Assembly (NCBI RefSeq): GCF_056712565.1
Contig: NZ_CM160072.1
Direction: 5' to 3' (one strand)
Length of the DNA: 64,000 bases
The notes below the pieces were generated by a model. It did not search any database and was not told where the DNA came from. It was given only the letters and a program-made list of their open reading frames with translations. Position numbers and translations under genes: made by a program. This document shows, in pieces, positions 10,598 to 47,878 of this stretch. Each line of letters opens with the position of its first letter. Position 1 is the stretch's first letter.

Positions 10598-11503
10598 CTA
10601 TATTTCCAGACACCTGTTATCACTTAACCCATTACTGGCTTGCTGCCGTAGATATTCCCGTGGCGAGCGATAACCCAGTGCACTATGCGGATGCCATTCG
10701 TTATAATGCTCGAACGCCTCTGCAAGGTTCTTTGCTGCCGTTAACCCGTCTGGTTTGGGCATGACACTGATGTAGTCACGCTTTATCGTTTTCACGAAGC
10801 TCTCTGCTATGCCGTTACTCTCCGGACTCCGCACCGCCGTGCTCTTCGGTTCAAGCCCCAACATCCGGGCAAACTGCCGTGTTTCATTAGCCCGGTAGCA
10901 TGAACCATTATCCGTCAGCCACTCTACTGGAGACGCCGGAAGCTCGTTGCCGAAGCGGCGTTCCACCGCTCCCAGCATGACGTCCTGTACTGTTTCACTG
11001 TTGAAGCCGCCCGTAGTGACCGCCCAGTGCAGTGCCTCACGGTCACAGCAGTCCAGCGCGAACGTGACTCGCAGTTTTTCTCCGTTATCACAGCGGAACT
11101 CGAACCCGTCAGAGCACCATCGCTGATTACTTTCTTTCACAGCCACTCTGCCTGTATGTGCCCGTTTCGATGGCGGTACAGCAGGTTTTCGCTCAAGCAA
11201 CAGCGCATTCTGGCGCATGATCCGGTAAACACGTTTGGCATTGATCGCAGGCATACCATCAAGTTCTGCCTGTCTGCGAAGCAGCGCCCATACCCGACGA
11301 TAACCATACGTGGGCAGCTCTCCGATAACATGGTGTATACGGAGAAGCACATCCGTATCATCAGTGTGACGACTGCGGCGGCCATCCATCCAGTCATCGG
11401 TTCGTCTGAGAATGACGTGCAACTGCGCACGCGACACCCGGAGACAACGGCTGACTAAGCTTACTCCCCATCCCCGGGCAATAAGGGCGCGTGCGCTATC
11501 CAC
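10598..11503 (-). CDS. insD: IS2 transposase InsD (orfB)
   Basis: 301-aa translation ([34 protein letters not shown]...) recognised as IS2 InsD. Confidence 0.85.
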
Positions 11504-11826
11504 TTTTTTGCCCGTCCATATTCAACGGCTTCTTTGAGGAGTTCATTTTCCATCGTTTTCTTGCCGAGCAGGCGCTGGAGTTCTTTAATCTGCTTCATGG
11601 CGGCAGCAAGTTCAGAGGCAGGAACAACCTGTTCTCCGGCGGCGACAGCAGTAAGACTTCCTTCCTGGTATTGCTTACGCCAGAGAAATAACTGGCTGGC
11701 TGCTACACCATGTTGCCGGGCAACGAGGGAGACCGTCATCCCTGGTTCAAAGCTCTGCTGAACAATTGCGATCTTTTCCTGTGTGGTACGCCGTCTGCGT
11801 TTCTCCGGTCCTAAGACATCAATCAT
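11461..11826 (-). CDS. insC: IS2 transposase InsC (orfA)
   Basis: [49 protein letters not shown]... recognised as IS2 InsC (121 aa). Confidence 0.85.
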
Positions 11827-11875
11827 CTGCTCTCCAATGACTAGTCTAAAAACTAGTATTAAGACTATCACTTAA

Positions 11876-12010
11876 ATAAGTGATAGTCCTGATACAAGTT
11901 TTTAGAGTAGTCATTAGTGAACAGATAATTGTTAACTTAGAACCAGTAAAATGCAAACGACGCACCACGCTGGGAAAATCGCTGCTATTCAGCAGAGTTT
12001 TGTACCGAGA
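11876..12010 (+). mobile_element. diverged IS2-like 5' fragment in mirror orientation (head-to-head with the IS2 copy)
   Basis: Sequence from 11876 mirrors the reverse complement of 11830..11875 with a few mismatches, and ORF 11880..12320 begins MIVLIQVFRVVISEQIIVNLEPVKCKRRTT, a diverged echo of the IS2 InsC leader [30 protein letters not shown]. Confidence 0.6.
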
Positions 12011-12548
12011 ATTGTGGCCAGCCACTTATTGCTCTCGCGTAAGCAGGTATCCCCATCGTTTACCAGTCCAGCACATCTTGTGGTCAGACAGAAGAAGAGC
12101 AAACTGTTACTGGACTCACTGCATGCATGGTGGAGAAAAATGCCACGCTATCCAAAAATCCAGACTGGGTGAATGGTTCAGCTGTGTACTGAATCAGTGG
12201 GGCGCACTCTGTTATTACAGTGTTGACGGTCAGGCGGAGGCAGACATAATGCCGCGGAAAAAGCCCTTTGTGCCATCTGTCTCGGAAATAAAAACTCTTA
12301 TGACCTTTGTCAAATATTAAGCCCAAAAAGACCTTACGCAGCTCCGGGAGCTTCGTTATATCGCGGATTAAAGAACCTGAAACAGTCAGACTGTATCTTG
12401 GATTTTACAAACTCTTATTCGGGGATTTTAGCCCCATGACGATTTACGCAGTGAGCTGGCCTCTTTCTACGTGCAGGTATTAGCGCATTCTGGCTTCCCT
12501 GAATTCTTTTACGAGGATCACTCATTCCGTGTCTGACTGCTTCAGGGT

Positions 12549-13682
12549 TTAATTTTGCTTCTGCTGACTGAATGATGATTGGGCAGCAAGTGCAATATCC
12601 CACATAAATCCAGTCAACTCACGAGCCACCGCCGTAATGGCTACTTGTGATTTTTTCCCTTTTGCTGTCAGACTTCGGTAACGAGAACACAATCGTTGTT
12701 GAGCTTTCCATGCAATATCTTTGGAATATTGTGTTACAGAGTCCGGTCGGTAATATATAAGCCATGCCCCAACTTTTGCAGGTGTACGATAAGACCAGGC
12801 GGCTTCGTAAAGCAGACGTCTCAGTTCGCTGTTTCCAACTTTTGTTATTCCTCTGGGACGAATACTGTTTCCACTGGAATATTCACCTGGCACCAGTCCC
12901 AGAAAAGCCATGAGCTGTTTGGGATTGGAAAATCGCGAAAAATCACCCAGTTCAGCAACCAGAGTTATTGCAATTAGCTGACCAACACCTTTAAGAGCCT
13001 GCAACTGGCAGACCAGATTGCACAGAGACCACTCAGGTAACAGGCGAGATATTTCCTGGTCGAGTTGAAGTATGCGATCTTCAATCTGCTCCAGACTTTG
13101 ACAATAGTGTTGAAAAGCAATCTGTTGAGATGGCTGACTAAATGATTGATTAGCTAACCAGGTTCGATGTTTTCCTGTCCAGTGCTTTCCTGCATAATGT
13201 TTGTCTGTTCGCAATAGCATGCTCAGAATTCGCTGTCGGGCAACTCTGCTGTCTCGTTTAGCTGCTGCACGGGCTCTGATTAGATCCCGCATAGCTTCAT
13301 GAGTCAGGTCAGGGATCCAGACAGGGGTAAGTTCTCCAGCCCGCAGTAACCTGGCGAGAGAAATTGCGTCCCGATGATCATTTTTGATTCTGTCTGTCGG
13401 TGATTTTGGTATGCGGGAAGGGGCAATAACCTGGCATTTTATATTCATCGCTGTGAGTTGATGATATAGCCCAAAACCACAGGGGCCAGCCTCATAGCAG
13501 GAAAGAATGTTTCCGTAAAGTCCCTGCAATTTCTGAAATAATCGACGTACAGCCTGGGCTTCGTTGTTAATCGTACCATAATAACGAACTTCGCCAAGCC
13601 GTTCAGGTGCAGCAATAGCAACCGCCAACGTTTCTTTATGCACATCCAGCCCGACGTAAGCCGCAATATTTTCCGAATGCAT
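12549..13682 (-). CDS. IS110-family transposase/recombinase
   Basis: 377 aa, N-terminal AAYVGLDVHKETLAVAI (DEDD RuvC-like fold) and C-terminal domain typical of the IS110 family. Confidence 0.8.
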   Translation of the reverse strand: MHSENIAAYVGLDVHKETLAVAIAAPERLGEVRYYGTINNEAQAVRRLFQKLQGLYGNILSCYEAGPCGFGLYHQLTAMNIKCQVIAPSRIPKSPTDRIKNDHRDAISLARLLRAGELTPVWIPDLTHEAMRDLIRARAAAKRDSRVARQRILSMLLRTDKHYAGKHWTGKHRTWLANQSFSQPSQQIAFQHYCQSLEQIEDRILQLDQEISRLLPEWSLCNLVCQLQALKGVGQLIAITLVAELGDFSRFSNPKQLMAFLGLVPGEYSSGNSIRPRGITKVGNSELRRLLYEAAWSYRTPAKVGAWLIYYRPDSVTQYSKDIAWKAQQRLCSRYRSLTAKGKKSQVAITAVARELTGFMWDIALAAQSSFSQQKQN

Positions 13683-13769
13683 GATGACCTCCTCTGGAAT
13701 ATCCCACCAATGCTATAGTGAGTATATAAAGGTCATATCATCTTTATGTTCTTCGGCGGCGAGCGCAGT

Positions 13770-13949
13770 GCACTGTTGTATGGGCTTATCGGCACTTGCC
13801 TTCTGAACGACATTGATCCGGAAGCGTATCTGCGCCATATCCTGAGCGTACTGCCGGAATAACCTTCCAACCGTATTGATGAACTCCTGCCATGGAACGT
13901 AGTTCTCACCAATAAATAAGCATCAATATGATTCTCCATTAACGCTTAC
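13770..13949 (+). mobile_element. IS66-family right-end remnant (transposase C-terminus with a 1-bp frameshift, plus terminal repeat)
   Basis: Plus-strand translation ALLYGLIGTCLLNDIDPEAYLRHILSVLPE then, after a frameshift, ...RIDELLPWNVVL; ends at a GTAAGCG-type terminus (about 13943..13949 on the complement); near-identical inverted copy at 47718..47878. Confidence 0.55.
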
Positions 13950-14057
13950 CTTTTCTCAGGCTATTTTTGCTTTTTTTTGCTTTTCCCCGCCACTTTATGG
14001 TGATTATCACATCAATATACATCGATAGATATTAACGTAACTGAAATGAGGTGAAGC

Positions 14058-15272
14058 ATGAAATTTGAACGCCATCATGAAATATTGAAACGACTCAGTA
14101 AATTCGGTTCTGTAAAAGTATCCGATCTGTCCAATAGCCTCAATGTAACGAAAGAAACTATTCGATCAGATCTTAATGAACTTGCCAGGCTTGGCTATCT
14201 GACTCGATGTCATGGCGGTGCTTTTATCGTCCTAGACTCGCTTGATACTATTGCGAAAAATGAAATCGCTTATGCGCTTGAAAATTATGATACAGCCCAG
14301 GGAATAAAAAAAGGCCACTCAACTATGAAAAGTCAAGTATGCGTTATTGGTTCGTTTAATGTTGATATCATCAGTTATTTGCCGAGGCTTCCCACTATCG
14401 GAGAATCGCTTCTGGCAAGTAATTTTATATTTTCACCGGGGGGAAAAGGCTGTAACCAAGCGCTGGCAGCAAGCTTTGCCGATACTGATGTTTATTTCAT
14501 AACAAAAGTAGGTACAGATCACTTTAGTGATTATGCGATCAACTTTATGAATTCGTCTAAGATTTATAAAAGTATAATTTATCAAACGAAAGAAACGCAA
14601 ACCGGAACTGCCACGATCCTTGTTAATGAAGGTACTGGCGATAATGTTATTGCGATCTATCCCGGTGCCAACATGACAATGTCGTCCGATGAAATAACTA
14701 TTCAGAAAGAAGCGATTATTAATTCTGATGTCATACTTCTGCAGCTCGAAACAAATTATACCGCTCTGCAACAAGCGATCACATTGGCGCAAAAAAACAG
14801 TATCCCGGTCATTATTAACCCGGCACCCTATAATGATATCGTCAACGAACTTATTCAGGATGTTGATTATATCACCCCCAATGAAACAGAAGCTGGTTTA
14901 CTGTCCGGCATAGACGTACACGATCTTGAATCAGCTAAACGAGCTGCAGAAGCTATCCACAATAAAGGGGTAAAAAACACGGTTATCACGCTCGGTAGCA
15001 AGGGCTCGCTCGCATTTGATGGCAAAAAATTCATTCATTCGCCAGCGTTTCCAGCGGTCGTTAAAAATACGGCAGGAGCCGGGGATGCTTTTAACGGCGC
15101 TCTGGCATCAGGACTTGCGAAAGGAAAATCACTGGAATCAGCACTGTGTTATGCCAGCGCCTTTGCATCCCTAGCGGTGGAGACAAGCAATGCTTCCGAC
15201 ATGCCTGAACATGAATCTGTGATACATCGAATTCAGAGTATACATTATCAGCAAACTATTTTTACGCATTAA
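14058..15272 (+). CDS. fusion protein: DeoR-type HTH regulator domain + ribokinase/PfkB-family sugar kinase
   Basis: N-terminal DeoR HTH (HEILKRLSKFGSVKVSDLSNSLNVTKETIRSDLNEL), then kinase domain with GG dipeptide (SPGGKGCNQA) and anion-hole motif NTAGAGDAFNGAL. Confidence 0.7.
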   Translation: MKFERHHEILKRLSKFGSVKVSDLSNSLNVTKETIRSDLNELARLGYLTRCHGGAFIVLDSLDTIAKNEIAYALENYDTAQGIKKGHSTMKSQVCVIGSFNVDIISYLPRLPTIGESLLASNFIFSPGGKGCNQALAASFADTDVYFITKVGTDHFSDYAINFMNSSKIYKSIIYQTKETQTGTATILVNEGTGDNVIAIYPGANMTMSSDEITIQKEAIINSDVILLQLETNYTALQQAITLAQKNSIPVIINPAPYNDIVNELIQDVDYITPNETEAGLLSGIDVHDLESAKRAAEAIHNKGVKNTVITLGSKGSLAFDGKKFIHSPAFPAVVKNTAGAGDAFNGALASGLAKGKSLESALCYASAFASLAVETSNASDMPEHESVIHRIQSIHYQQTIFTH

Positions 15273-47521: not shown

Positions 47522-47717
47522 TTATAAACAGAAAGGAAAACCGATAATAATGGAATGGACGCCCCGACCATGAAGCAACGGTAGGATATTACTGATAAAC
47601 CTTCCAGTGGAGGTGCGTTATGGCCGTTTTAACGATTAGCATTGACCTGACAAAAAATGAATTCCAAATCCACGGTCTGGGTAGGAACAGAAAAATCTAA
47701 GCTCAGAAAACGGATTA

Positions 47718-47878
47718 AAGTAAGCGTCAACGGAGCACCGTATTGACGCTTATTTATTGGTGAGAACTACGTTCCATGGCAGGAGTTCGTCAACACGGTT
47801 GGAGGGCCATTCCGGCAGTATGCTCAGAATATGGCGCAGATACGCTTCCGGATCGATACCGTTCAGACGGCAGGTGCC
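47718..47878 (-). mobile_element. IS66-family right-end remnant (in-frame transposase C-terminus plus terminal repeat), inverted copy of 13770..13949
   Basis: Reverse-complement translation GTCRLNGIDPEAYLRHILSILPEWPSNRVDELLPWNVVL; GTAAGCG terminus at 47718. Confidence 0.55.

Follow-up and report, generated by a model that had tools for sequence, protein, structure and literature searches.

A left-end-truncated IS2 joined head-to-head through a shared palindrome to an older IS2-like relic: a deletion scar in an Escherichia coli chromosomal island

In the 64,000-nucleotide stretch of DNA analysed here (contig NZ_CM160072.1 of assembly GCF_056712565.1, hereafter the window), an IS2 copy without the outer part of its left end runs directly into a diverged IS2-like left end of opposite orientation, and the two are joined through a 20-bp palindrome that both possess. 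This junction is a real, heritable deletion scar of an IS2 and an older IS2-like relic, a product of ordinary insertion sequence (IS) biology. The reading that we prefer, at a probability of roughly 0.6, is that an IS2 inserted head-to-head beside the relic and that both tips and the spacer were subsequently lost by deletion from one palindrome to the other. An earlier note had taken this place for a recombination product of two IS3-family copies at a palindrome and for a breakpoint in the island, and both descriptions held: the left arm is a bona fide IS2, the right arm is a resident relic, and 177-178 bp of the empty-site allele are missing. The features on which the argument draws are as follows.

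9687-10508: yaiO, upstream of the 78-bp stretch that abuts IS2
10509-10586, plus strand: 78 bp downstream of yaiO, abutting the IS2 right end, defined by comparison with JJ2434
10587-11885, minus strand: IS2 copy, element positions 1331 down to 33, with the right inverted repeat and both genes intact
10587-10627, minus strand: IS2 right inverted repeat (IRR), 41 bp, tip at 10587, the sequence TGGATTTGCCCCTATATTTCC starting at 10587
10598-11503, minus strand: IS2 orfB (InsD/TnpB), 301 aa, intact; NCBIfam NF006918 'IS2 transposase TnpB'
11461-11826, minus strand: IS2 orfA (InsC, OrfA repressor), 121 aa, intact, ATG at 11826; NCBIfam NF006928 'IS2 repressor TnpA'
11672-12045, no strand: long imperfect inverted repeat made by the fusion (IS2 left-end interior against relic), from repeat search and hairpin fold
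11866-11885, no strand: junction palindrome TATCACTTAAATAAGTGATA, 20 bp, equal to IS2 positions 33-52 and the core of a 26-bp palindrome
11886-12067, plus strand: diverged IS2-like relic, corresponding to IS2 positions 53 to about 253, the palindrome on its left being shared
12068-12302, plus strand: IS66-family transposase fragment that cuts off the relic, from RefSeq annotation of the matching stretch in comparison loci L001, L003 and L004
12303-13741, minus strand: ISEc45 (IS110 family) inside the IS66 fragment, with an ORF at 12549-13682 (377 aa); annotated in L001 and L012

The junction lies in a chromosomal island of E. coli, on its cobU side. The island carries cobU, yoeA, ibrAB and yaiP/yaiO-like genes up to the relic, a PfkB kinase gene beyond ISEc45, and further on CP4-44-like genes and sbmC, dacD and his. 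The IS66 fragment resumes at 13742, after ISEc45. The latter element lies outside the junction and is given as context; it is missing from L003 and L004, where the flanks are clean. ISEc45 occupies the identical site of the IS66 fragment in the window, in Eco_23-2678 (100% identical) and in FDAARGOS_1249 (36/1439 positions differ), which suggests independent site-specific insertions or later conversion. At 47717-47878 of the window, near the tmaR/yeeA end of the island, there is a second, 88%-identical copy of part of this IS66-family fragment on the opposite strand. An Rfam scan of 9000-15000 gave no match.

Apart from its left end, the IS2 copy is complete. In the profile search, orfB covered positions 1-301/301 of NF006918 with 713 bits (cut-off 597) and orfA covered 1-121/121 of NF006928 with 276 bits (cut-off 229), and the DNA is identical to copies annotated by RefSeq as an intact programmed-frameshift transposase. 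The IRR, which begins TGGATTTGCCCC... when read from 10587, matches that of an intact IS2 copy and abuts the yaiO flank, and the flank matches JJ2434 up to the tip base 10587. In canonical IS2, that is, K-12 IS2F and every complete copy examined, ttggttgtctggagattcagggggccagtcta comes after the palindrome and makes up the outermost 32 bp of the left end. The window has gtcctgatacaagtttttagagtagtc... in that place, and left-end positions 1-32 are absent. The mirror arm is thus foreign to the canonical IS2 end, as had been proposed, and a terminal loss of IS2 did occur, although the size of about 40 bp first given for it does not stand: the unambiguous loss is 32 bp, and only when it is counted to the palindrome centre does it amount to the whole 42-bp left inverted repeat.

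The inverted repeats of IS2 are 42 bp long at the left end and 41 bp at the right (PMC3299598, Lewis et al. 2012). The transposase binds left-end residues 12-42, and single-base deletions at left-end positions 14, 26 and 29 abolish minicircle formation (PMC3299598). The missing positions 1-32 cover the cleavage domain and the outer part, indeed most, of the transposase-binding domain of the left end. No 5-bp target site duplication was found at the window IS2, where the left flank ends in ...ATAAT and the right side is the relic; the duplications of other IS2 copies are CTACG, CAAGT, TTATG and ATCAG. The copy thus keeps its right end, promoter region, operator and genes but has no recipient left end. 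We infer that minicircle formation would not be possible and that the copy is stranded, and that it could still supply OrfA and transposase in trans.

The right arm is 77-78% identical to IS2 and in register with the IS2 left end, the alignment ending at about 12045-12067. The mirror-image arm reported by the earlier note is therefore genuine and diverged, and its length is about 180-200 bp instead of about 130 bp. When the arms are aligned with each other, 141/180 positions are identical (78.3%), and there are two gaps, of 33 bp and 1 bp. The collinear left-end homology of an IS2-like element is present, and intact transposase genes are not. The relic has lost 33 bp, is frameshifted by 1 bp and retains no intact gene; its plus-strand ORF matched no protein family in the profile search. 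A promoter scan turned up a single weak hit on the plus strand of the relic (11901-11929), a yield not above that of shuffled sequences. The relic arm is single-copy in most genomes, and in K-12 it is unannotated (2070475 to about 2070690). Among 72,556 plasmids there was no relative of the relic closer than IS2, and a relic 33-mer was absent from 100,044 species representatives.

The relic exists in the same place without any IS2. Among 5426 complete E. coli genomes, 833 carry yaiO, the spacer and the relic with its 32-bp tip and palindrome, between the same flanks and with no IS2, and the window relic is 100% identical to that of JJ2434, strain 4238 and others. Because these 833 genomes hold the relic at the locus without IS2, the relic predates the IS2 copy of the window. 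Three forms of the relic were distinguished. In the allele of JJ2434 (ST131), yaiO is followed by the 78-bp stretch, then by a spacer of 146 bp and then by the relic, which has a tip of its own (tagacaggccccctgaatctccagacaaccaa) and a complete palindrome; no IS2 is present. Strain 4238 and others have another IS2-free allele, in which window position 1496 is joined directly to the relic tip. A third allele family (K-12, EC9, SMS-3-5, ECCWS199) has a diverged tip, a palindrome short by 12 bp and an extra IS911-like fragment. This fragment, 736 bp long, frameshifted and on the minus strand, lies between the relic and the IS66 fragment in K-12-type genomes and is not present in the window; it corresponds to 4681-5416 of the EC9/K-12-type locus L002, between the equivalents of window positions 12071 and 12068.

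The tips of these alleles differ in their likeness to IS2. The JJ2434 relic has a full tip, 54/55 positions being identical to IS2, followed by 127/164. More generally, 54-55 of the 55 relic positions as far as the end of the palindrome agree with IS2, and beyond it only 77% do (JJ2434, L004 2945-2999; L013 3501-3552), and in the K-12/SMS-3-5 allele the tip matches IS2 at 28/32 positions (L007 3289-3340). The relic alleles of JJ2434 and strain 4238 may themselves owe their tip to an IS2, through a crossover at the palindrome.

As the earlier note had placed it, the palindrome at the junction spans 11863-11888, is 26 bp long and is imperfect only at the central AA dinucleotide (gactatcactta-aa-taagtgatagtc). 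The symmetry over 26 bp is present in the fusion, and 20 bp of it are the palindrome of the IS2 left end. This palindrome, residues 33-52, extends to both sides of the inner edge of the 42-bp left inverted repeat, has its centre exactly at that edge, and holds the OrfA operator (residues 39-48). The site of the OrfA repressor is part of left-end residues 39-48 (TTAAATAAGT), and the weak resident promoter lies immediately downstream of it (PMC3299598). The crossover took place somewhere within the 20-bp palindrome common to IS2 and relic.

The fusion created a long inverted repeat around this centre. The repeat search found arms of 101 nt at 11774-11874 and 11877-11977, 78% complementary and separated by 2 nt, and further collinear arms reaching 11672 and 12045. 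Folded as single-stranded DNA, 11740-12010 forms a single hairpin of -69 kcal/mol, compared with -23.6 +/- 3.3 kcal/mol for shuffled sequences (z = -13.8; 0/200 shuffles fold as well). This result indicates that the inverted-repeat structure is real and far beyond chance. Open reading frames do mirror each other on the two strands (11461-11871, minus; 11880-12320, plus), as had been remarked, but their similar leaders are not coding sequence: the 'MIVLI...' leaders are GTG-started read-through of the untranslated leader, and the true orfA ATG is at 11826.

Comparison with JJ2434 shows what was gained and lost at the locus. Identity is 99.96% up to 10587 (window 8000-10587 against 212-2799 of JJ2434 locus L004) and 99.5% from 11866 onward. 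The sole differences in layout are 177-178 bp in JJ2434, comprising the 146-bp spacer and the relic tip, versus 1279 bp of IS2 in the window. The JJ2434 spacer opens with a perfect hairpin (L004 2800-2876; aatttcgggcaataacttattcgtatagagcacc / ggtgctctatacgaataagttattgcccgaa), which forms a 31-bp stem in the fold of the reconstructed intermediate described below, and the right end of the window IS2 is joined exactly at the foot of this hairpin, lost next to 10586.

A matching intact IS2 was found in strain Eco_23-2678, whose sequence agrees with about 60 kb of the window at 99.8-100% identity. This IS2 lies at the equivalent of window 7116-7120, 3.5 kb away, with the target duplication CTACG, and shows 0 differences from the window IS2 in 1299 shared bp. 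Against K-12 IS2F, the window IS2 has 28 differences in 1279 sites (97.8% DNA identity), and it is a mosaic in which canonical IS2 is combined with a diverged variant. The central dinucleotide of its palindrome is flipped relative to canonical IS2, and the flip is also present in the intact, mobile variant. Since the two central bases of the variant are flipped relative to IS2F, the palindrome of the Eco_23-2678 IS2 in minus orientation equals the relic palindrome at 20/20 positions. Intact, target-duplicated IS2 copies occur in two forms, with AA or TT at the palindrome centre inside the OrfA operator (window 11875-11876); these divide comparison loci L006, L010 and L014 from L002, L007, L008, L011 and L015 and differ only by this 2-base inversion, which is the signature expected of template switching within a hairpin. 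In Eco_23-2678 itself, the closest relative (L012 3796-5103; window 11868-11871), another IS, IS629/IS1203-like by its ends, is inserted in the relic palindrome with a 3-bp duplication, CAC; the palindrome is thus also targeted by a second IS.

The preferred reading has two steps. In the first, starting from a locus like the JJ2434 allele, the IS2 variant of this lineage would have transposed into 10586/10587 in minus orientation, so that its left end came to face the left end of the relic about 146 bp from the relic tip. The spacer, of about 150 bp, would then have been enclosed by a 52-bp near-perfect inverted repeat, made up of palindrome and tip on each side with one mismatch. In the second step, the palindromes, which flanked the foot of the stem at a distance of about 235 bp from each other, would have acted as direct repeats of 20 bp, since the motif is its own reverse complement and its inverted copies are also direct ones. 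Replication slippage across the stem, or repair after cleavage of the hairpin, would have removed one palindrome, both 32-bp tips, the target duplication and the spacer, and the outcome is the arrangement found in the window. We lean on slippage or annealing here because 20 bp is short for RecA-dependent recombination.

When the deletion between the palindromes of the reconstructed intermediate was carried out in silico, the product equalled the window base for base. The intermediate folds into a hairpin of -114 kcal/mol in which the two palindromes stand opposite each other in the stem, and the identical 20-mer is present in both parental sequences, the JJ2434 relic and the Eco_23-2678 IS2; the product keeps one copy and loses the intervening DNA. 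By these comparisons, the switch of orientation is a breakpoint left by a deletion between head-to-head left ends; it did not come about by inversion or by snap-back copying of the IS2's own end. The model predicts, as its intermediate, an intact and target-duplicated IS2 at 10587; this was not found in the genome collection, and the left junction of the window occurred in 0/5426 genomes. A 40-mer across the fused junction, a scan for the fusion and not for the intermediate, had no metagenome matches.

Head-to-head layouts in which no deletion has taken place do exist at this locus. In K-12 and EC9, an intact IS2F is followed by 200 bp of yoeA and then by the relic, and SMS-3-5 has an undeleted head-to-head arrangement with a 240-bp spacer and the target duplication TTATG. 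In about 680 genomes, an IS2 left end and the relic start lie on the same strand a few hundred bp apart. In the relic alleles sequenced from the undeleted layouts (K-12/EC9, SMS-3-5), the palindrome lacks 12 bp and the tip is diverged, and hence the homology needed for the deletion is absent.

Three existing layouts were rejected as direct sources of the window junction. The K-12-type layout does not yield it by simple deletion, because the K-12 relic lacks 12 bp (aagtgatagtcc) that are present in the window. The GPEC1258 layout, with an intact IS2 inside the relic at +65 (CAAGT), gives another sequence by either deletion or inversion between its two palindromes. A single recombination between the upstream IS2 and the relic in the Eco_23-2678 layout would delete or invert 7121-10586, which the window keeps.

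Only two complete genomes, FDAARGOS_1249 and MINF_2E, were found to contain the same fusion, 100% identical across 110 bp. In these genomes the right end of IS2 meets the flank at window positions 1435 and 1423, respectively, versus 10587 in the window; these joins are 61 and 73 bp from the relic-tip site of the IS2-free strain-4238 allele. The IS2 of MINF_2E is a different variant with 31 differences, close to the intact copy of GPEC1258. By their flank SNPs, both genomes fall with the strain-4238 allele and the window falls with JJ2434, on small counts (0-4 in 824 bp, 1-7 in 1459 bp). Because the right-end junctions differ and the flank SNPs group with different relic alleles, the fusion looks recurrent, and two or three independent events are favoured by these sequence comparisons.

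The alternative of a single origin, in which the fusion arose once and the three left flanks were produced later by right-end deletions or by recombination with upstream IS2 copies, is possible, and we consider it distinctly less probable than the insertion and deletion proposed above. The window and FDAARGOS_1249 do not differ at all in the 1481 bp of IS2, palindrome and relic, given which shared ancestry or exchange between the two IS2 copies is conceivable, and relative to the window the other two genomes simply lack 1424 or 1436 to 10586. Deletions of this kind are common beside IS3-family elements: in the long-term evolution experiment, 14/83 IS150 events were deletions beside a resident IS150 without target duplication (PMC11708052). 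Against a single origin, the SNPs of FDAARGOS_1249 and MINF_2E fit the short IS2-free allele with its tip at 1496 and not the window or JJ2434, and the IS2 variant of MINF_2E differs. The identity with FDAARGOS_1249 does not imply common descent of the junction, because the same IS2 variant exists free, intact and mobile. A single origin would in any case concern only the history, and the palindrome deletion would still be needed once.

A transposition-coupled route is rather unlikely. Here, an IS2 minicircle would recombine with the chromosome at the palindrome in the inverted sense, fusing IS2 in minus orientation to the relic and leaving a chromosomal tip-palindrome-tip hairpin beside an abutted left-end/right-end junction; transposase would then fire this junction into a nearby target, and the hairpin and adjacent DNA would leave as a circle without a duplication. 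This route yields the exact product, the absent target duplication included. It would also fit the right-end junctions (1423, 1435, 10587) lying 61-146 bp from the relic tip, two of the three being in a stretch of repeated IS2 insertion (1474, 1481 and 1507 in other genomes), as well as the failure to find the simple-insertion intermediate. Abutted IR-IR junctions are highly reactive and in IS30 give deletions from the inverted-repeat edge, and the formation of IS-dimers has been demonstrated for IS2, among other elements (PMC9333248). However, the route needs more steps, we found no precedent for integration of a circle via a 20-bp palindrome, and its 84-bp perfect palindrome intermediate has not been observed, whereas simple insertion and deletion cover the same facts in two well-known steps. 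The end product fits both insertion followed by deletion and a coupled event, the target duplication being lost either way, and does not distinguish between them.

An assembly artefact at the repeat is very improbable. Inverted repeats and multi-copy IS are classic sites of misjoining, and the left junction of the window is unique; nevertheless, two complete assemblies, produced independently in different laboratories, contain the same 110-bp junction without a single difference, which answers the concern about misassembly that the earlier note had raised, and the relic arm, being single-copy in most genomes, offers no second copy to misjoin. Snap-back or hairpin-mediated inverted duplication, by which the right arm would be the IS2's own left end, template-switched at the palindrome and later diverged, is refuted despite the long quasi-palindrome centred on a perfect palindrome, since the right arm exists independently, 100% identical, in 833 genomes without an adjoining IS2 and is just 78% identical to the IS2 that it adjoins here, where a recent duplication would be near-identical.

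A wider reading can be put forward only tentatively, and we think it doubtful: the OrfA-operator palindrome might be a preferred crossover point, usable in either orientation, for repeated exchange between IS2 and resident IS2-like ends. Such a crossover would explain the three private head-to-head fusions, the relics of JJ2434 and 4238 that are 54-55/55 identical to IS2 up to the palindrome and 77% beyond, the different left flank at the relic tip in each allele, and the flipped central dinucleotide in some mobile IS2 variants. A relic with an identical tip and a diverged interior is what a deletion between an IS2 and an older relic in tandem orientation would leave. If operator-bound OrfA or transposase promoted the exchange, the IS would encode a new recombination activity, in place of passive slippage.

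Many genomes carry distinct IS2 ends within window 1423-1507, at 1423, 1435, 1474 (CCTTC), 1481 and 1507 (ATCAG). Upstream of and within yoeA (to about 2200) there are also the relic tip at 1496, K-12 IS2F at 2195-2199 and about ten further spacings, so that the region from 1423-1507 to about 2200 looks like a regional hot spot for IS2; the search joined same-strand pieces only and was therefore blind to orientation bias. The locus was also found, at 99-100% identity, in a 1.04-Mb record labelled as a Klebsiella pneumoniae plasmid (NZ_CP079635.1, L015), which probably reflects mislabelling or contamination of the assembly.

On its cobU side, the island has a boundary that changes fast and receives IS2 repeatedly, and the junction with its variable left flank marks this boundary. 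Inverted IS pairs are normally expected to invert, and a palindrome within their ends lets them delete instead. Head-to-head pairs of this kind could erase their own tips and the DNA between them and leave an immobile IS that would still express its proteins. For annotation, the consequence is that the window IS2 is called an intact transposase gene yet is not a mobile element. The fusion leaves the current understanding of IS2 unchanged.

Compared with IS2 of the IS3 family, IS2 group (e.g. IS2F of K-12), the window copy is alike in its 41-bp IRR, full-length orfA and orfB and operator palindrome, and differs in lacking left-end positions 1-32 and a target duplication and in the flipped palindrome centre. 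A natural counterpart, yoeA::IS2F and the relic at the left end of the cryptic prophage CP4-44 in K-12, has the same locus, relic and head-to-head orientation; it keeps both tips with 200 bp of yoeA between them, has 12 bp less of the palindrome and an added IS911-like fragment, and is in effect the undeleted state. IR-targeting and IS-dimer formation by IS30 and IS911 (PMC9333248) likewise place an incoming IS beside a resident inverted repeat of its own kind and decay by deletion. Their junctions, however, are tip-to-tip, exclusively left-right and have a 1-2 bp spacer, whereas the window junction is left-left and lies 32 bp inside each tip; with both tips absent, it is not an abutted IR-IR junction of the minicircle or IS-dimer type (as defined in PMC3299598, PMC9333248), and insertion targeted to an inverted repeat was rejected as the direct cause. 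Deletions adjacent to IS150 (PMC11708052) similarly combine an IS3-family element, a flanking deletion and no target duplication, but they keep a complete IS end, whereas here the end is truncated and the breakpoint is set by homology.

The deletion proposed for the window may be likened to the precise and nearly precise excision of Tn10 and Tn5, a RecA-independent, hairpin-stimulated deletion between short direct repeats at or within long inverted repeats, reportedly worked out by Foster and Kleckner and by Egner and Berg in 1981. In both, by this analogy, the deletion ends are short repeats at the base of a stem, the stem-loop is lost, one repeat is left, and no transposase cleavage would be needed. 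Unlike in Tn10 and Tn5, the inverted repeat of the window comes from two elements, and the direct repeat exists only by way of the palindromic motif.
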